Part shown: piece after piece, positions 3,700 through 11,141 of the stretch
Layout: the number at the start of each line of letters is the position of its first letter
Position numbering within the stretch: position 1 is the stretch's first letter
Virus record (IMG/VR): IMGVR_UViG_3300025151_000017
Location: 52,942-116,941 of that record
DNA: 64,000 nt
Origin: a virus
Direction: 5' to 3' (one strand)
Position numbers and translations under genes: made by a program
The notes under the pieces: model-generated
What the model saw: only the letters and a program-made list of their open reading frames with translations
Database searches by the model: none
Told to the model about the DNA's origin: nothing

Positions 3700-5088
3700 A
3701 TGCGTATTGAAGAAACTATACTTTCCAATCTATTTCAAAATGATGAGTTTACTCGTAAAGCAATCCCCTTTATTAAAGGTGAGTATTTTTCTGAGCGAGG
3801 TGAACGAATTATATTTGAAGAGTTTGAAAAACTTTTCATGCAATATAATAATGTTCCTAGTCCTGAGATGATTGCTAATGAAGTCTTTGCTCGTAAAGAT
3901 TTATTTGAAGACGAACATAAAAACATGCAAGAGATGCTTGAGGATATAAAAGATATCCAGGCAGTAAATGAAAACTGGTTGTATGATAAAGCTGAAGAGT
4001 GGTGTAAAGAACGAGCAGTACATAATACTATTATGGACTCTATCAAGATTATTGATGGTAGAGATAAAAATCGTGACAAGGGTGCGATTCCTAAAATGAT
4101 GCAGGATGCTCTTGGTGTATGTTTTGATAATAGTGTTGGTCATGATTATCTTGAAGATTCTGATGACAGGTATGAATACTATCACAAGGTTGAAGAAAAG
4201 ATTAAGTTTGATATTGATTTATTGAATACCATTACTCGTGGTGGCTTGAGTAAAAAAACTCTTAACATAGCTATGGCTGGTACAGGTGTTGGTAAATCTT
4301 TGTTTATGTGTCATCATGCTTCATCAGTTTTGGCTGAAGGTATGAATGTTCTTTATATTACTATGGAGATGGCTGAAGAAAAAATCTCTGAAAGGATTGA
4401 TGCTAACTTATTGAACTTGGGTATGGACGAAATTAAAGTTGTCGACCATGATATCTTTAGTAAAAGAATTAACAAAATTAAAGACCATAATAATGGTAAG
4501 CTAATTGTAAAAGAGTATCCGACAGGTGGTGCCCATGCTGGGCACTTCCGTGCTTTACTTGAAGAACTAAAAGTAAAAAAAGGATTTACACCTGATATTA
4601 TTTTTATTGATTATCTAAACATCTGTGCTTCTCAAAGATTGAGGATGGGTGCAAATGTGAATACATATTCATATATTAAATCTATTGCTGAAGAACTAAG
4701 AGGATTGGCAGTTGAATATAACTGTCCTATCGTATCAGCAACTCAAACTACCAGAGGTGGATATAATAATACTGATGTCGGACTTGAAGATACTTCTGAA
4801 AGTTTTGGTTTACCAGCAACTGCTGATTTAATGTTTGCGATTATTGCTAGTGAAGAACTAGATAACATGGGACAGTGGATGATTAAGCAGTTGAAAAACA
4901 GATACTCCGATCCAAACTATTACAAAAGGTTTGTAGTTGGTGTTGATAAAAACAAGATGAGACTGTATAATGTAGAAGCATCTGCTCAGACTAATATCAT
5001 GGACTCTGGTCAGGATAATGATATCGGAGCAGTGTTTGATAAAAGTGAAGCAGGTGAACGATTAAATATGGAAGGGTTTAAGGTATGA
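3700..5088 (+). CDS. 41: Replicative DNA helicase gp41 (DnaB-like)
   Basis: AGTGVGKS, YITMEMAEE, IDYLNI, AEELRGLAVE, SESFGLPATAD and KQLKNRY. Confidence 0.97.
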   Translation: MRIEETILSNLFQNDEFTRKAIPFIKGEYFSERGERIIFEEFEKLFMQYNNVPSPEMIANEVFARKDLFEDEHKNMQEMLEDIKDIQAVNENWLYDKAEEWCKERAVHNTIMDSIKIIDGRDKNRDKGAIPKMMQDALGVCFDNSVGHDYLEDSDDRYEYYHKVEEKIKFDIDLLNTITRGGLSKKTLNIAMAGTGVGKSLFMCHHASSVLAEGMNVLYITMEMAEEKISERIDANLLNLGMDEIKVVDHDIFSKRINKIKDHNNGKLIVKEYPTGGAHAGHFRALLEELKVKKGFTPDIIFIDYLNICASQRLRMGANVNTYSYIKSIAEELRGLAVEYNCPIVSATQTTRGGYNNTDVGLEDTSESFGLPATADLMFAIIASEELDNMGQWMIKQLKNRYSDPNYYKRFVVGVDKNKMRLYNVEASAQTNIMDSGQDNDIGAVFDKSEAGERLNMEGFKV

Positions 5089-6386
5089 CAAAAATAATAA
5101 CTGCACCTAAAAAATTCGACTGTGAAGATAAACTTGGTTTTTTTGGTGATGAAAAAGATTACGAATTACTAGTTGATTGGGATTGTGATTTTTATGCTCC
5201 TACACCTATGGGTGAAGAAAACAGTGAAGCTAACATTATCTTCAAGTTTCGTAAAAATTGGTTTACTCAAGAACAACAAGACGAAGCATATGCAGGTTTG
5301 CGTGAAGCAGCAGGTGCCACAGAGAATCGTGGTCTGGCAGCAGGTACTGAAAAAACAGTTGCTCTAGGAAGTAGAGATTGGGTCACTAATTATCATAATG
5401 CTTTACTACAATACTTTATGTCTCCATCAGCTACACTTGATGGCTCGGATCCTGTAGAAGCTATACGACAAGAATATAAAGGCAGGGAAAAGATTGCTGA
5501 TGACAGTCGTGGTAAAGTATGGTTGGCACAAAAAGTTGCTGAAGAAGATTTCGTATTTGAAAACTGGGTTGAAGAAGTAAGAGTATTGCCACGAGATGAA
5601 ATGATTGCTGAAGCAACAAGAGTAAATGATAAACTAACATCTACAACTTCTTATGCTAACTCAGTGTTCTCTGGTATCGCAGGATACTTTGATAGATATC
5701 CTCGTATTCCTTTTGGTCGTCCTACCACTTATACTAGGGATAATTATGATAAGTTTGAGAGAGCATTCCCTTTCCTACAAAGATTATCAAATGGTTTTGA
5801 AGAACTGTTGCCTGTAAGACATGGTAAACAGATGGATGCTTGTAATAAACTAGATCCTAAATTTGTTATTCCTGGCACTGTTTTTACTACTGCTACTGTG
5901 AATAAAACTTTTAGAACAGCTTATCACAGAGATGCTGGTGATTTAAATGAAGGATTCTCTAATCTTACAGTCGTATCTAATAATGGTAAATACTCAGGTG
6001 GGTATCTAATACTTCCTGAATATAAAGTGGCTGTGAATATCCGTCCTGGAGATTTGCTATTGATTAACAATCACGATGGTATTCATGGTAATACACCAAT
6101 GGTACTAGAAGATGAAGAAGCTGAAAGAATATCTTTTGTATGTTATTTCAGAGAAAAAATGTTAGAACTTGGCTCTTGGGATTACGAACAAACTAGAGAA
6201 GAATATGTCACTGCTCGTAGAACTAATAAAGAACACCCTTTACAAAGACCACTATGGAATGGTATTAGTCCTGGCATGTGGGATGAAAAAGAGTGGTATG
6301 ATTTTCTTGAAAACAAATTAGGAACTGATGTATTGGTACAGTATCATCCTGACAGTCAAGCCAGTTCCCTGGAGAGTTTCTTTTAA
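5085..6386 (+). CDS. TET/JBP-family 2OG-Fe(II) dioxygenase (5-methylpyrimidine oxidase-like)
   Basis: VFTTATVNKTFRTAYHRDAGD (HxD), GGYLILPEY, PGDLLL, IHGNT (H) and ERISFVCYFRE (R). C-terminus is SSLESFF. Confidence 0.85.
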   Translation: MTKIITAPKKFDCEDKLGFFGDEKDYELLVDWDCDFYAPTPMGEENSEANIIFKFRKNWFTQEQQDEAYAGLREAAGATENRGLAAGTEKTVALGSRDWVTNYHNALLQYFMSPSATLDGSDPVEAIRQEYKGREKIADDSRGKVWLAQKVAEEDFVFENWVEEVRVLPRDEMIAEATRVNDKLTSTTSYANSVFSGIAGYFDRYPRIPFGRPTTYTRDNYDKFERAFPFLQRLSNGFEELLPVRHGKQMDACNKLDPKFVIPGTVFTTATVNKTFRTAYHRDAGDLNEGFSNLTVVSNNGKYSGGYLILPEYKVAVNIRPGDLLLINNHDGIHGNTPMVLEDEEAERISFVCYFREKMLELGSWDYEQTREEYVTARRTNKEHPLQRPLWNGISPGMWDEKEWYDFLENKLGTDVLVQYHPDSQASSLESFF

Positions 6387-7117
6387 TGGATTATAGATTA
6401 TTTAAAAATACTTATGTTCGTGAGATAGATGGTAAAGCATTACAAGTCGATAAAGATATGGTAAATGACTGTCTAGCTCATTACTCACAGTTTGACGATC
6501 TTGAGGATGCCATAGTTATGGACTGGGGTGCCAACATTGGTGGCTTCGGAAGAATGTTAATGGACAAACCAATAAAAAGATATATTGGTGTAGAGTGTCA
6601 TCCTGAAAACTTTGAGGTGATGGAAAAGAATCTAGGGGACGACCTGAGATTTGCTTTAATAGAAGCAGCAGTGACTAATCAAGATGCTGGTAATATAGAT
6701 TTATATATGACAGGCAGTAAACAAGAGTTCTGTTCAGGCACAACTAATCCTAAAAGTAATGCTGCGAAAAATATGAGAAAAAAGAAAGTTTCTGTGGCAA
6801 CTGTAAATGGGTATAGATTACTTGAAAAATATAAACCTACACATTTAAAATGCGATATCGAAGGAGAAGAATATCGTATGTTCGACCCAGACTGGCTCAT
6901 ACCTGATTCTGTAAAACAATTATCATTAGAGTTTCATTGGGCAGATAGAATACTGTCAGACTATGAAAGTACAGTTAGAGAGTCTCTCATCAGGCAAGGA
7001 TTTACACCTGTACAAGAAAAACTTAATTATGTCAAAGGGGATAAAAGAGTTATGTTCTTAGGTGAAGATATTTCTTACCGAAATGTATGGGGATTGGATA
7101 CACTGTACAAACGATGA
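6386..7117 (+). CDS. FkbM-family SAM-dependent methyltransferase
   Basis: DWGANIGGF, GVECHPENF, EAAV, LKCDIEGEE and LEFH. Confidence 0.85.
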   Translation: MDYRLFKNTYVREIDGKALQVDKDMVNDCLAHYSQFDDLEDAIVMDWGANIGGFGRMLMDKPIKRYIGVECHPENFEVMEKNLGDDLRFALIEAAVTNQDAGNIDLYMTGSKQEFCSGTTNPKSNAAKNMRKKKVSVATVNGYRLLEKYKPTHLKCDIEGEEYRMFDPDWLIPDSVKQLSLEFHWADRILSDYESTVRESLIRQGFTPVQEKLNYVKGDKRVMFLGEDISYRNVWGLDTLYKR

Positions 7118-8259
7118 AATATCTACACCCAGATAATATAGATAAACCTTACAAAGATTGGAGACTCCCTGAGAACAGGGTACAGATGTGTCTTCGGTCA
7201 TATGCTTGGCGAATGAAACATCGTGATGTTGACCATTACACTTATAATGAAGCATACATGACACGAGGTGCTATGACTGATGAGCAGAGGATTTATTTTT
7301 CCATGCTGTTTGGTATCACATACCAATCATCAATGGCTTGGGTTATCTGGTCACACTTTCCTGATATAGAAAAAATAAACTGGGAATATCTAGAAGAATG
7401 GAATAATGAAAATTATGCCAGACAACATTTTGCTAAAGACACAAAATATAACAAGGGAAAGTTTATCCCTATCCTAAAAGATATTCACGAAAAAGTCTTA
7501 CAACAATATGGCTCTCTTAGAGCATGGTTAGATACCTTTCAAGATTTCGACCATGCCTTAGAAGAGGTTATGTCAATTTATAGAATAGGTCGTATGTCTG
7601 GTTGGTTGACAACTCAAGCATTTTATGAGTTATGTGATGGGATGCGTCATATAAAACCAGAGAGTATGTTAGCGACAGATCCTTCTAATTGGTCAGTAAG
7701 ATCTGGACTGGTTTACATTTATAATAAACCAGAACTGATGGACTTAGATAGCAAAACCAAGTACAGCAGTGATGATATAAAATGGATTGAAAGAAAAGAA
7801 CAAGAATTTATAGAGAGTTGTAATGAGCATGTGAGTGATTATTTTAATAGTCCATTTACAATGGAAACCCACCTATGTCAATATAAGAAAATGATTAAGA
7901 CTGGTGGCGATGCTCCTGGGACTCCAACTCAAGATGCTTACACTCGTTGGTACAAATTAAAACAGGCATGGTCAGAGTTAGATTGGGATTTTTTTGAAGA
8001 TGTATCAAAGCATGCTGCACCTTGTGTACAGAAAACATTTCAGAATAAGATCCTAATGAAAACAGGTGCCATGACAGGTCAAATGATTAACATGCATGAC
8101 GATAATGATGACTTGCCTAATATGTACAAAGAGTTTGGTATAGAACAATCATGGCTTACTGACTTTGATGATTATACCAGACTAGAAATAAAGAATAATT
8201 TTAATAATTACTTGACAAAGATGTCAGGAGAAAAAGTCGGTCTAGAGGTTTACTTTTAA
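7114..8259 (+). CDS. aGPT-Pplase / amino acid:DNA transferase-like protein (HhH glycosylase fold)
   Basis: KDTKYNKG, IGRMSGW, SVRSGL and FTMETHLCQYKK, the ETxLCxxK motif typical of this family. ATGA overlap with the upstream gene at 7114. Confidence 0.72.
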   Translation: MKYLHPDNIDKPYKDWRLPENRVQMCLRSYAWRMKHRDVDHYTYNEAYMTRGAMTDEQRIYFSMLFGITYQSSMAWVIWSHFPDIEKINWEYLEEWNNENYARQHFAKDTKYNKGKFIPILKDIHEKVLQQYGSLRAWLDTFQDFDHALEEVMSIYRIGRMSGWLTTQAFYELCDGMRHIKPESMLATDPSNWSVRSGLVYIYNKPELMDLDSKTKYSSDDIKWIERKEQEFIESCNEHVSDYFNSPFTMETHLCQYKKMIKTGGDAPGTPTQDAYTRWYKLKQAWSELDWDFFEDVSKHAAPCVQKTFQNKILMKTGAMTGQMINMHDDNDDLPNMYKEFGIEQSWLTDFDDYTRLEIKNNFNNYLTKMSGEKVGLEVYF

Positions 8260-8277
8260 GAAATTCTAATATAGAAT
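8249..8277 (+). promoter_or_regulatory. Promoter TTTACT-N17-TAGAAT upstream of the inositol-1-phosphate synthase
   Basis: TTTACT 8249-8254 and TAGAAT 8272-8277. Confidence 0.75.
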
Positions 8278-8357
8278 TCTTATATATATGTTGATAGTGT
8301 GCTACTCTGATCCAGTCAAATATCACACTCTAATAAACTGATATAAAGGAGAAATAT

Positions 8358-9641
8358 ATGTCAAAAATAAATGTCGCCATTATTGGTGTCGGTAATTGTG
8401 CCAAGTCTTTAGTAGAGGGTGTACAATACTATATTCAAAATCCCGAAGATAAAGTTGGTTTAATGTATCCAGATATTGGAGGATACACTGTAAATGATAT
8501 CGAGTTCGTTTGTGGCTTCGATATTGACCCACGAAAAGTCGGAACTCACTTAATTAATGCATTACGATCCAGACCTAACTGTGCTATGGACCATGTCGAC
8601 TCGCTAGATTTTACTTGTGTAAATTCTCTAGCAGAAGTTTATTCAGGTCCAGTACTAGATGGTGTTGCTGACCACATGCTTGATTATCCAGAAGAAATAT
8701 CATTTAGAACAGGTGCAGATACTGCCCTATCTAAAAAACAAGTTGCTGAAAAACTTAACTTTCATAAAGTAGATGTGGTAATTAATTATTTACCAGTTGG
8801 TTCTGAGAAAGCTACAGAGTTCTATATGGCAGCATGTCTAGAAGCTGGTTGTCATTTCGTAAACTGTATTCCTACATTAATCGAAACTAACAAATCTAAA
8901 TTAGTAGAGCAATCATTTATTGATAAAGGACTTACTATTGTTGGTTCTGATATGAGATCTGCTTGGGGTGCTTCTAGATTATCTGAGGTATTACAAGGAG
9001 CAATGATAGACTCTGGTTTACAAGTGACGCAACATATTCAAATGAATATGGCAGCAGGGTCTACACAAGGTCAAGAAAATATTCGTACAGGTAGAACAGC
9101 AAATACTGACTTCTTAAATATGGCTTACAAAGAAAGATTACATAGTAAGCATGTATCTAAGGAGAATGTTTTGAAAGGTCAAAATGTTGTTAGGGAAGAA
9201 CCAACAGCTGGTATGACTTTATATGCTGGACCAAGTCTTACAGTATTTCAAAAACCAGGAGGGGATTATGTTGGCTCCGATAATAAAATTGCCAACCTAG
9301 ATATTGTTGCTTATGGTTTTGGTGGGGCAAGGTATGAAATGTCAGCTAGACTTTCAGTACAAGATTCGCCAAACTCAGGAGGAGTGGTGGTATCGGCTAT
9401 TCGTTTCTGTAAGGTTGCTTCTGAGATGGGTATAGTTGGTTTCCTAAGAGGTCCAAGTGCTTGGACACAAAAGACACCTCCTGTACAATTAAAAACTGAG
9501 GATGCTAAGTTTGAATGTGACGCACTTGCTCGCAGAGAACTTACTAAAATGACAGAGCCACAGTTAAAGAAAAATAATCCTAAAGCATTAGACTTGCCTT
9601 ATACATATCAAGCTGGTCATACTGATTATGAAAACAATTAA
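8358..9641 (+). CDS. ino1: Myo-inositol-1-phosphate synthase
   Basis: VAIIGVGNCAKSLVEG, DVVINYLPVGS, FVNCIP, GSDMRS.WGAS, NTDFLNM, SDNK, DSPNSGGVV and KTPP. Confidence 0.92.
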   Translation: MSKINVAIIGVGNCAKSLVEGVQYYIQNPEDKVGLMYPDIGGYTVNDIEFVCGFDIDPRKVGTHLINALRSRPNCAMDHVDSLDFTCVNSLAEVYSGPVLDGVADHMLDYPEEISFRTGADTALSKKQVAEKLNFHKVDVVINYLPVGSEKATEFYMAACLEAGCHFVNCIPTLIETNKSKLVEQSFIDKGLTIVGSDMRSAWGASRLSEVLQGAMIDSGLQVTQHIQMNMAAGSTQGQENIRTGRTANTDFLNMAYKERLHSKHVSKENVLKGQNVVREEPTAGMTLYAGPSLTVFQKPGGDYVGSDNKIANLDIVAYGFGGARYEMSARLSVQDSPNSGGVVVSAIRFCKVASEMGIVGFLRGPSAWTQKTPPVQLKTEDAKFECDALARRELTKMTEPQLKKNNPKALDLPYTYQAGHTDYENN

Positions 9642-10017
9642 CACATTTGATATCGATGGTGTCATCTTTATGGGTGATTACAATGGAGTGTATCCGAGTA
9701 AGGATGACATCATCATCACAGGTAGATCTATTGAAGAGTGGGATGAAACTTCTGCTATGCTAAAATCAAAAGGTATAGACAACGAAGTGTTTATGAACCC
9801 AACAAACTTTGCTCAAAAAACTAGGGAAGGATCTGGGGTACATAAAGCAACCATAATTAAATGGCTTGAACAAGATAGAGGAGTAAAAGTTGGAATACAT
9901 TTTGAAGACGATCCTATACAAATCAGAGAAATATCTAAAAGATGTCCTGAGGTAAAAATTGTTCATCTTGTACATACATTGGTAGAAAAAGAAAATAAAA
10001 GGAGACCATTCAAATGA
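9628..10017 (+). CDS. Small capless HAD-family phosphatase
   Basis: FDIDGV (motif I), ITGRS (II), K (III) and FEDD (IV). Confidence 0.8.
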   Translation: MKTINTFDIDGVIFMGDYNGVYPSKDDIIITGRSIEEWDETSAMLKSKGIDNEVFMNPTNFAQKTREGSGVHKATIIKWLEQDRGVKVGIHFEDDPIQIREISKRCPEVKIVHLVHTLVEKENKRRPFK

Positions 10018-10586
10018 TTATTGCGATAGGTGGAGAACCAGCTACTGGTAAATCTACATTAATGAAACAGTGGATGAAACCATATAAGTGGGAAGATGTA
10101 AAACTTACTGACTTGCTATATGGTATGTGGTGTAAAGACCTGAATACGATTGTTCTCGGAAAAGATTATTTCGATGAGAGCCAGATGTTTTCAGGTACTG
10201 ATAGACTATCAATGGCAGTACAACCCAAAGCAATAGAGTGGATGAGGGACTCATACAAGCCATCTGGAGTGAATATAGTGTTTGAGGGAGATAGGTTATT
10301 TACTGCTTCTTTCCTATCTGAGATCGTCGCTATGGGGCACGATTTAGAGTGTATTTACATAAAAGCAGACCAAAGTATCCTAGATGAAAGACATGTCTCT
10401 AGGAAGGATAATCAGGACGACAAGTTCCTAAATTCAAGGAAAACGAAGCTATCTAACATATTATCTAACTTTGAACTCATGCCTTTTATTACCGAGTTCC
10501 CTAATAATAATGAAGATGACCAGCTGTTATTGGTCAACCATCTTCTAGGAAAGTTAGATATTGGCACGATAGTTTTCGAAAACTAA
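10014..10586 (+). CDS. P-loop kinase, 5-hydroxymethyluridine DNA kinase-like
   Basis: IAIGGEPATGKST, FSGTDRLSMAVQP and VFEGDRLF, the pattern of P-loop kinases in base-hypermodification clusters. Confidence 0.78.
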   Translation: MIIAIGGEPATGKSTLMKQWMKPYKWEDVKLTDLLYGMWCKDLNTIVLGKDYFDESQMFSGTDRLSMAVQPKAIEWMRDSYKPSGVNIVFEGDRLFTASFLSEIVAMGHDLECIYIKADQSILDERHVSRKDNQDDKFLNSRKTKLSNILSNFELMPFITEFPNNNEDDQLLLVNHLLGKLDIGTIVFEN

Positions 10587-10595
10587 ATATCGTTG

Positions 10596-11141
10596 ATGGC
10601 AAAGTGGTATCGAGATAAGGCAATTATCAATGTGCGTGGTGGAGACGCAGAGACAAGGAAACTTGTCCGATCCATTGCCCACTGGGTATCACGAAAAACC
10701 ATGGATGTTCGACTCCGAACATCTGTCACTGTAAATATAGTAATACAAAAAAACTTATATCTTAAGGAAAAAGTCCAAGGATTATCTTGGATTGATGATG
10801 AGGAATATAAACCTCGTAAATTTAAGATACAGGTTGAAGAACAATCTAGATTACGACCCATGCTAGAAACTATCGCTCACGAAATGATACATATCAAGCA
10901 GTGGGCATCTGGTGAAATGTACGAATATTCAGATGGGTTTCGTACACGATATCAGAAGAAAGCATTTAACACCAAGAAGATGGATTACTGGGATGCTCCT
11001 TGGGAGATAGAAGCACATGGTAAAGAAGTCGGTATGTTTGTTAGATGGGCAGAAGAGGAAGGATATAACAAACTTCCTTGGGCAAGGGTTGACTTCCTGA
11101 AACCTGATTATGCTAAGAAAATCAAGCACTTAATAAAATAA
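10596..11141 (+). CDS. HEXXH metallopeptidase-like protein
   Basis: TIAHEMIHIKQ and PWEIEAH. Preceded by CTAAATA at 10583-10589. Confidence 0.65.
   Translation: MAKWYRDKAIINVRGGDAETRKLVRSIAHWVSRKTMDVRLRTSVTVNIVIQKNLYLKEKVQGLSWIDDEEYKPRKFKIQVEEQSRLRPMLETIAHEMIHIKQWASGEMYEYSDGFRTRYQKKAFNTKKMDYWDAPWEIEAHGKEVGMFVRWAEEEGYNKLPWARVDFLKPDYAKKIKHLIK

Follow-up and report, generated by a model that had tools for sequence, protein, structure and literature searches.

We describe here six co-directional genes in an IMG/VR virus contig (IMGVR_UViG_3300025151_000017) which we read, with a probability of about 0.55, as an operon for post-replicative thymidine hypermodification that adds a phage-made cyclitol, most likely myo-inositol, to the DNA. 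The stretch analysed, called the window below, is the final 64 kb of this 116,941-base contig, which is estimated to be 65% complete. The genes encode, in order, a TET/JBP dioxygenase, an FkbM-family methyltransferase, a relative of the amino acid:DNA transferases (AADT), a myo-inositol-1-phosphate synthase (MIPS) family enzyme, a HAD-type phosphatase and a P-loop kinase. Neighbourhoods that combine a TET enzyme, a P-loop kinase and an AADT are already known, as reported in PMC13229309, and the operon of the window is likely a hypermodification variant with inositol genes.

5085..6386, + strand: TET/JBP dioxygenase, 433 residues (PF12851, 9.6e-20; phrog_24024, 9.9e-162)
6386..7117, + strand: FkbM-family S-adenosylmethionine (SAM) methyltransferase, 243 residues (PF05050, 8e-7; TIGR01444, 2.6e-11)
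7087..8259, + strand: relative of AADT (formerly aGPT-Pplase clade 2), 390 residues (PF18724 via homologues; probable start 7114)
8358..9641, + strand: MIPS-family enzyme of phage clade I, 427 residues (TIGR03450, 1.3e-61; 1gr0, 3.2e-53; 6k96, 1.1e-29)
9628..10017, + strand: small capless HAD-type phosphatase, 129 residues (phrog_415, 2.8e-8; four HAD motifs)
10014..10586, + strand: Ploopntkinase3 P-loop kinase, 190 residues (PF18751, 6.4e-9)

An earlier sequence-only reading of the window had assigned these six families, and all the assignments were confirmed, those of the transferase and the HAD protein only indirectly. Its interpretation of the genes as an inositol pathway is partly supported: the families and the linkage of MIPS to the transferase were borne out, but the MIPS-HAD pair is not exclusive to clusters that hold the transferase and the kinase.

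Linkage of MIPS with the transferase

An alignment scan gave a transferase set of 51 IMG/VR viral loci, with relatives at 27-98% identity. The MIPS set consists of the best 80 of 170 viral stretches and three cultured-phage loci, 83 in all. By tblastn, MIPS was present in 48 of the 51 transferase loci, although these loci come from related phages and the raw counts are therefore not independent events. Of the loci without MIPS, one ends at the transferase (L119) and the others are the variants L113 and L130. The MIPS start lies no more than 1.5 kb from the transferase start in 35 of the 48, i.e. MIPS is the next gene. When the transferases were clustered at 70% identity, 20 of 21 clusters had MIPS, and at 50% identity all five clusters hold MIPS-linked members. 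Most transferase loci also have the TET and P-loop kinase genes. The sequence-only reading had staked itself beforehand on MIPS being linked to the transferase in related genomes, and this linkage was found at the level of loci and of clusters alike. It had also asked whether MIPS and HAD occur together with transferase and kinase in other phages; MIPS accompanies the transferase in those 48 loci, but the MIPS-HAD pair is found as well in clusters with PF18723 proteins and thymidylate-synthase-like genes but no PF18724, and in a 7-deazaguanine cluster.

As judged from these sequences, the linkage of MIPS and transferase survives gene swaps and is more than shared ancestry, because near and distant partners are mixed. 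In L090 and L091 the transferase is 84% identical to that of the window, yet MIPS is at 48%, TET at 40% and HAD at 49%; L011-L015 show the reverse, with MIPS at 85%, TET at about 91% and the transferase at only 43%.

Seen from the MIPS side, the HAD gene follows MIPS in 82 of 83 loci, and the exception (L029) ends at MIPS. A gene for an AADT, a PF18723 protein, a Ploopntkinase3 kinase or a TET enzyme is found within 5 kb in 71 of the 83 loci. If thymidylate-synthase-like, dCMP-deaminase, C5-methylase-like and f3 genes (f3 being one of our neighbour families) are also counted at this distance, the number is 79; the other four comprise the phage Moby (L002) and three loci whose flank is truncated. 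As a base rate, 19 of the 50,697 records of cultured phages contained MIPS. The transferase subfamily was found in two of these records, both of Caulobacter phage Cr30, and a search with two peptide patterns only gave no relative in 185,579 species genomes.

The six enzymes and the proposed pathway

The membership of the window transferase in the AADT family is confirmed indirectly, by transitive homology. PF18724, currently named 'Amino acid:DNA transferase' by Pfam, is precomputed in 34 of 44 transferase homologues (33-53% identity), and five of six homologues matched it when rescanned (4e-12 to 6e-20; scores of 46.7-72.5 bits, cut-off 26.2). An alignment of 41 sequences (A1) shows Glu260 and Cys264 as invariant, and among 43 unique relatives both residues reach at least 90% conservation. 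They sit in an E-T-x-x-C pattern like that of Glu243, Thr244 and Cys247 described for PaMx11 gp46 (PMC11472151), an equivalence of motif pattern and not of structural alignment. The conserved Cys and a neighbouring Glu are reported to be essential in M6 gp51 and in ViI gp247, the latter a serine:DNA transferase that gives a precedent for a hydroxyl nucleophile (PMC8989533). The true start of the window gene is likely ATG 7114 (381 residues) and not the longest-ORF (open reading frame) start at 7087, because of an ATGA overlap with the FkbM stop, the 381-residue length of a homologue (P0001, 96% identical) and the family consensus start MKY. Downstream of the transferase, at a distance of 1.8 kb, comes a Ploopntkinase3 gene, and a tblastn match to the kinase was found in most of the 51 transferase loci.

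The hallmarks of TET/JBP enzymes are an HxD...H iron triad and an Arg that binds 2-oxoglutarate. The window protein matched PF12851 over residues 212-357 at 70.9 bits (cut-off 34.9) and contains the motifs H-R-D, I-H-G-N-T and R-x-S-x-V-x-Y-F-R; over 36 unique relatives, some of the motif residues are at least 90% conserved and others 60-90%. No match to the C5 DNA methylases (PF00145), to the thymidylate-synthase family (PF00303) or to ParB was found in the 117-kb contig, which is 65% complete. Phage 5mYOX clades of T-dioxygenases are reported as linked to P-loop kinases and AADTs, with no neighbouring cytosine-C5 methyltransferase (PMC13229309). Because the contig has no such methyltransferase and the kinase- and AADT-linked clade is read as T-dioxygenases, the enzyme of the window is predicted to act on thymine rather than on 5-methylcytosine, oxidising it in DNA to 5-hydroxymethyluracil.

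The kinase matched PF18751 at 36.1 bits (cut-off 27). The Walker A motif GEPATGKS was present in 10 of 10 family members examined, and the motifs G-T-D and E-G-D-R are conserved. By its family, this enzyme would phosphorylate 5-hydroxymethyl-2'-deoxyuridine (5-hmdU) in DNA.

The active site of MIPS is marked by the motifs N-x-G-G-N-x-D, S-K-x-x-S-K and D-S-P-N-S and a C-terminal Lys. Structural relatives of the window protein are 1gr0, the Ino1 of M. tuberculosis, and 6k96, a five-membered cyclitol-phosphate synthase. In an alignment of nine phage MIPS (A2), N230, N249, D251, K264, K268, K310, D336, S337, N339 and K372 are invariant and align to 1gr0. The protein also matched PF01658 (1.4e-9, 38.5 bits, cut-off 27) and is predicted to cyclise glucose-6-phosphate to inositol monophosphate.

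HAD phosphatases share the motifs DxDx(T/V), S/T, K and (E/D)DD. Their counterparts in the window protein, D8-x-D10-G-V, T31, K73 and E93-D-D, reach at least 90% conservation among 78 unique members; alignment A3 shows D8, D10, G11, V12, K73, D94 and D95 without variation, and T31 and E93 conserved to at least 90%. The protein had no Pfam match above noise, the HAD alignment matched nothing when searched as a profile against PDB, and three of 15 relatives touched Acid_phosphat_B (best E 0.0013). In the Atlas, the clusters closest to it (score 0.91) are viral Acid_phosphat_B and HAD_PNKP. Since these kin are nucleic-acid or nucleotide phosphatases, the transfer of inositol phosphate could come first and its dephosphorylation follow on the DNA.

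The enzyme that founded the FkbM family transfers its methyl group to a hydroxyl of a cyclohexane ring. The FkbM protein of the window matched PF05050 at 29.8 bits (cut-off 22.7) and TIGR01444 at 44.1 bits (cut-off 37.7), an FkbM match was found in 20 of the 51 transferase loci, and a distant FkbM-like gene is also present in the variant loci without MIPS. We regard the protein as a candidate tailoring enzyme, which may, as a guess, O-methylate the adduct.

From family membership and gene context we infer the following pathway. The TET/JBP dioxygenase would convert thymine in the phage DNA to 5-hydroxymethyluracil, and the P-loop kinase would convert this to 5-phosphomethyl-dU. MIPS would turn host glucose-6-phosphate into inositol monophosphate, from which the HAD protein would strip the phosphate, either before transfer, giving free inositol, or after transfer on the DNA. 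In the AADT-family transferase, the conserved cysteine would attack C6 and the phosphate would be expelled; a ring hydroxyl would then add to the exocyclic methylene, as the serine hydroxyl does with ViI gp247, to give 5-(inosityloxymethyl)-dU. FkbM may O-methylate a free hydroxyl. The purpose of the modification is likely the shielding of phage DNA from host nucleases.

For the wider statement the chances seem to us about even: marine T4-like phages, which are abundant, Cr30 and probably Ralstonia phage RP13 would carry 5-(inosityloxymethyl)uracil in place of some of their thymine. It would be the first DNA base with a carbocyclic polyol, made by means of an AADT subfamily switched from amino acids to a phage-made cyclitol, followed by lineage-specific O-methylation (FkbM) or glycosylation (GT4 genes, L109 and L118). 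If true, the cyclitol ether would be a new chemical class of natural DNA modification, AADT enzymes could use a nucleophile that the phage must make itself, and the conserved MIPS gene, otherwise rare in phages, would be accounted for. The lineage is abundant, with more than 100 near-identical protein clusters from metagenomes and contigs of up to 152 kb, and an inositol base, if true, would therefore be common in nature. Such a base could have consequences for how these phages respond to restriction and CRISPR and for their sequencing. In mass, the predicted nucleoside would be isobaric with the glucosylated one of base J, so that existing surveys by mass only could have taken the inositol adduct for a hexose. 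Cr30, which carries the same gene set, can be grown on Caulobacter crescentus, and the reading is therefore open to direct test.

Comparison with known systems and alternative explanations

Two cultured phages carry related clusters. In Cr30, homologues of TET (44%), MIPS (41%), HAD (53%) and the kinase (34%) and a PF18724 transferase (2.4e-54) lie within 9 kb. The phage also has a canonical thymidylate synthase (372.9 bits), which together with the full set fits oxidation of thymine after replication. In RP13, MIPS (60%), HAD (38%) and a PF18723 protein (1.7e-48) lie within 4 kb, a 590-aa protein has a 24% transferase match, and in lieu of TET the phage has a divergent thymidylate-synthase-like gene. 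Unlike the window, both phages have extra small genes interspersed and no FkbM match. Published accounts describe the DNA of RP13 as bearing heavy modification of unidentified nature (PMC13697223, PMC12686479), and the phage is grouped with the SP-15-like phages (PMC12686479).

Among the characterised systems, the pathway to 5-(2-aminoethoxy)methyl-2'-deoxyuridine (5-NeOmdU) in ViI is similar in that a P-loop kinase phosphorylates 5-hmdU and an aGPT-Pplase/AADT of clade 2 exchanges the phosphate for a hydroxyl nucleophile to give an ether; its reported parts are the 5-hmdU DNA kinases gp67/gp243, the transferase gp247 and the pyridoxal-phosphate (PLP) decarboxylase gp226 (PMC8989533). The window transferase keeps the conserved Glu and Cys. 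In ViI, however, a dUMP hydroxymethylase supplies 5-hmdU ahead of replication, whereas the window encodes a TET/JBP dioxygenase; the nucleophile in ViI is a host amino acid, whereas the window operon carries its own MIPS and phosphatase, and it has no PLP decarboxylase. The glycine:DNA transferases PaMx11 gp46 (PUGT) and M6 gp51 belong to the same Pfam family, PF18724, as the homologues of the window transferase and share E-T-x-x-C, but gp46 has 291 residues against 381-390 in the window. The 5mYOX clade C1 pathways are described, like the window, as having TET/JBP without an adjacent C5 methyltransferase and linked to a P-loop kinase and an AADT (PMC13229309); they differ in a ParB activator, for which the window contig gave no match. 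The main text of that paper (its supplements were outside the search) does not contain the words inositol or cyclitol.

Base J of kinetoplastids is made by JBP1/2 plus a glucosyltransferase. It resembles the predicted product in the oxidation of thymine by TET/JBP and in the C6H11O5 polyol-type group then placed on the hydroxymethyl oxygen; it differs in its glycosidic bond, formed from UDP-glucose by a glycosyltransferase, where the window is predicted to use kinase activation and AADT-type substitution to form an ether to a carbocycle. The sequence-only reading knew of no characterised inositol-modified base, and a full-text literature search, with supplements outside it, likewise gave no paper that describes one. 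In papers pairing inositol with hypermodification, hydroxymethyluracil or 5hmdU, inositol appeared only in the names of glycosyltransferase structures.

Several observations weigh against the reading of the operon as a pathway for an inositol base. The MIPS-family enzyme covers positions 1-349 of the 355 of TIGR03450, but its score of 208.7 bits is far under the equivalog cut-off of 638, and the solved relative 6k96 makes a five-membered cyclitol phosphate instead. Phage MIPS fall into two clades. In clade I, to which the window, RP13 and the commonest marine loci belong, the N-x-G-G-N-x-D loop is interrupted by an insert of 15 residues (about 232-247), its two glycines being changed to Ala and split apart by the insert, and there is a second insert of 6-7 residues (319-325); clade II, which includes Cr30, Moby and many other phages, is without both inserts and canonical. 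The two clades would probably give the same product, because near-identical transferases pair with either. The transferase itself had no direct match in Pfam (E up to 10), in NCBIfam or by phmmer against PDB, and a PDB profile search with alignment A1 gave no match, gp46 included. The profile confirmation sought by the sequence-only reading was thus obtained for Tet_JBP, for Ploopntkinase3 and for the homologues of the transferase, but not by a direct PF18724 match of the window protein. The kinase, searched by tblastn (E <=1e-3) against the 50,697 phage records, matched 340 of them, from Mycobacterium, Microbacterium, Methylophilales, Caulobacter and Arthrobacter phages only, and none of the characterised 5-hmdU DNA kinases compared (M6 gp54, PaMx11 gp49, ViI gp67/gp243, SP10 gp186, PhiW-14 gp37) was among the matches. 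Its description as '5hmdU-kinase-like' thus holds for the P-loop clade, and not for similarity to the characterised enzymes by tblastn.

The settings of the genes elsewhere also count on this side. In Moby-type Stenotrophomonas phages the MIPS-HAD pair stands between FolE and QueC/DpdA/QueE in a 7-deazaguanine cluster, and Moby gave no match to PF18723, PF18724 or PF00303. The commonest marine order is thymidylate-synthase-like gene, dCMP deaminase, DUF6552, MIPS, HAD, PF18723 protein, f3 (a 326-aa protein with a G-D-S-H-S motif) and C5-methylase-like gene, as in L062 (8458-14875) and some 50 loci like it; these L062-type clusters yielded neither a kinase nor a PF18724 transferase. Conversely, L113 (7835-12585) and L130 keep the FkbM-like, transferase, HAD and kinase genes with MIPS absent. 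To these points are added the relatedness of the loci, noted above, and the incompleteness of the contig, which makes missing genes weak evidence.

It is possible, though we hold it to be clearly the less probable outcome, that the same pathway makes another adduct, with inositol monophosphate coupled as such or with the MIPS-family enzyme making another cyclitol phosphate. Inositol monophosphate could be attached through a ring hydroxyl, the HAD protein then dephosphorylating the DNA-bound group, or through its phosphate to give a phosphodiester. The capless 129-aa HAD protein is closest to polynucleotide-kinase phosphatase domains and to viral Acid_phosphat_B/HAD_PNKP, which act on nucleic acids or nucleotides, and L113 and L130 retain it with the transferase and kinase even without MIPS. 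The active-site-loop insert in the MIPS clade of the window and the ability of the fold, seen in 6k96, to yield a five-membered cyclitol phosphate point the same way, as do phosphate-containing thymidine adducts reported in SP-15-like phages (PMC12686479). However, the 84%-identical transferases pair with MIPS with or without the insert, which speaks for a single shared product, MIPS matches the canonical enzyme in its catalytic Lys/Asp/Asn columns, and the near-constant translational coupling of HAD to MIPS (82 of 83 loci) is the simplest signature of a synthase-phosphatase pair. That the transferase adds a host amino acid or polyamine, as in M6, PaMx11, ViI and PhiW-14, with MIPS-HAD serving some other step or target, is unlikely. 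Glycine, serine or putrescine is indeed given as the nucleophile of every characterised AADT (PMC8989533), and the occurrence of MIPS-HAD beside 7-deazaguanine genes and in clusters without PF18724 means that the pair is not tied to the transferase alone. Yet the conserved core is without the PLP decarboxylase, radical-SAM isomerase, FAD lyase and acetyltransferase typical of amino-acid adducts, the frequency of MIPS beside the transferase subfamily (48 of 51) stands against 19 in 50,697 phage records overall, and none of those 19 is M6, ViI, PaMx11 or PhiW-14.

We consider it improbable that MIPS-HAD is an auxiliary metabolic module, whose inositol would serve as osmolyte, lipid head group or signal, and that merely shares a hyperplastic replication-gene region. 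In all these phages the genes are sited between those for the polymerase, UvsX and helicase, a region known to gather accessory genes, Moby-type phages carry the pair without thymidine-modification genes, and the Ps15 gene is treated as a bacterial acquisition in PMC9025141. But adjacency holds with transferases down to 27% and MIPS down to 41% identity and across the gene swaps, it recurs in RP13, a phage placed with the SP-15-like group (PMC12686479), and at least one pyrimidine-modification-type gene lies within 5 kb in 79 of 83 MIPS loci, three of the four exceptions having a truncated flank. Very improbable, finally, is 5-hydroxymethylcytosine as the acceptor base in place of 5-hydroxymethyluracil. 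Some phage TETs are reported to oxidise 5-methylcytosine (PMC8256090), and the alternative MIPS clusters hold a C5-methylase-like gene together with a thymidylate-synthase-like gene that is possibly a dCMP hydroxymethylase. The window contig, however, has no PF00145 or PF00303 match, Cr30, with the same cluster, has its canonical thymidylate synthase, and the kinase- and AADT-linked 5mYOX clade is read as T-dioxygenases (PMC13229309).

Variant clusters and the surrounding locus

The same module occurs with two routes to 5-hydroxymethyluracil, either TET (window, Cr30) or a thymidylate-synthase-like gene with dCMP deaminase. In L113 and L130 the operon has a radical-SAM protein (480 aa) instead of TET, plus a DUF2284 metal-binding protein encoded between HAD and kinase. 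With a transferase of the same family, this variant may produce another adduct. GT4 glycosyltransferase genes stand in a tailoring position in some transferase-MIPS clusters (L109, 8856-10004; L118, 10564-13179), and one such cluster has a cytidylyltransferase-cupin fusion; their presence suggests further decoration of the adduct in those lineages. A PF18723 gene lies between transferase and MIPS in L033 and is absent in L034, and L037 has small ORFs on both strands instead, differences that could be gene decay or assembly error. The Moby cluster, in which FolE is GTP cyclohydrolase I, spans 7207-12621 of L002, in whose record HAD is labelled 'hypothetical protein'.

Pfam currently names PF18723 '5-hmdU DNA kinase, helical domain' ('HMUDK_hel'). 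PF18723 proteins were dropped as kinases, since Walker A was absent in 52 members of family f2, two of f162 and RP13 ORF120. The neighbour families f3, f49 and f11 were tried as transferase relatives by hhalign, with probabilities of at most 0.6%; because this comparison failed, the clusters without PF18724 have no identified transferase.

The sequence-only reading had placed six consecutive, mostly overlapping genes directly after the helicase, and the ORFs were recovered at exactly the coordinates it gave, with overlaps at four of the five junctions between the six genes. TET and FkbM overlap by 1 nt, MIPS and HAD by 14 nt and HAD and kinase by 4 nt, and FkbM and transferase overlap as described above. 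The sole gap, of 98 nt, separates transferase and MIPS, and an AAGGAG ribosome site precedes the MIPS start. Upstream, the helicase stop lies over the TET start in a 4-nt overlap. The + strand carries 145 of the 149 called ORFs, and the order clamp loader, DNA polymerase, UvsX and gp41-type helicase is a T4-like phage arrangement. A promoter scan with the consensus gave 31 promoter-like sites where 34.0 were expected from shuffling, so no excess, and five terminator-like sites were found where 3.5 were expected, not above expectation. The T4 late-promoter word TATAAATA was not enriched and had no occurrence in the operon. A search for tRNA genes found none, and megablast of the operon region against cultured phages gave no match. 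The genes on either side of the operon are as follows.

3700..5088, + strand: DnaB/gp41-type replicative helicase (Pfam DnaB_C, 2.5e-18; phrog_19, 1.6e-125), context outside the pathway
10593..11141, + strand: HExxH protein, 182 residues (phrog_10499, 7.7e-26; weak SprT-like match, 0.092)

The HExxH gene lies directly 3' of the kinase and is present in eight loci, all close relatives; it is probably outside the operon core. Homologues of the kinase are annotated as 'terminase small subunit' in many Mycobacterium phage records. In the Microbacterium phages Cinna and Matzah and the Methylophilales phage Melnitz, TET-like and Ploopntkinase3-like genes adjoin near the genome start, under the labels oxidoreductase, queuine tRNA-ribosyltransferase or adenylate kinase.

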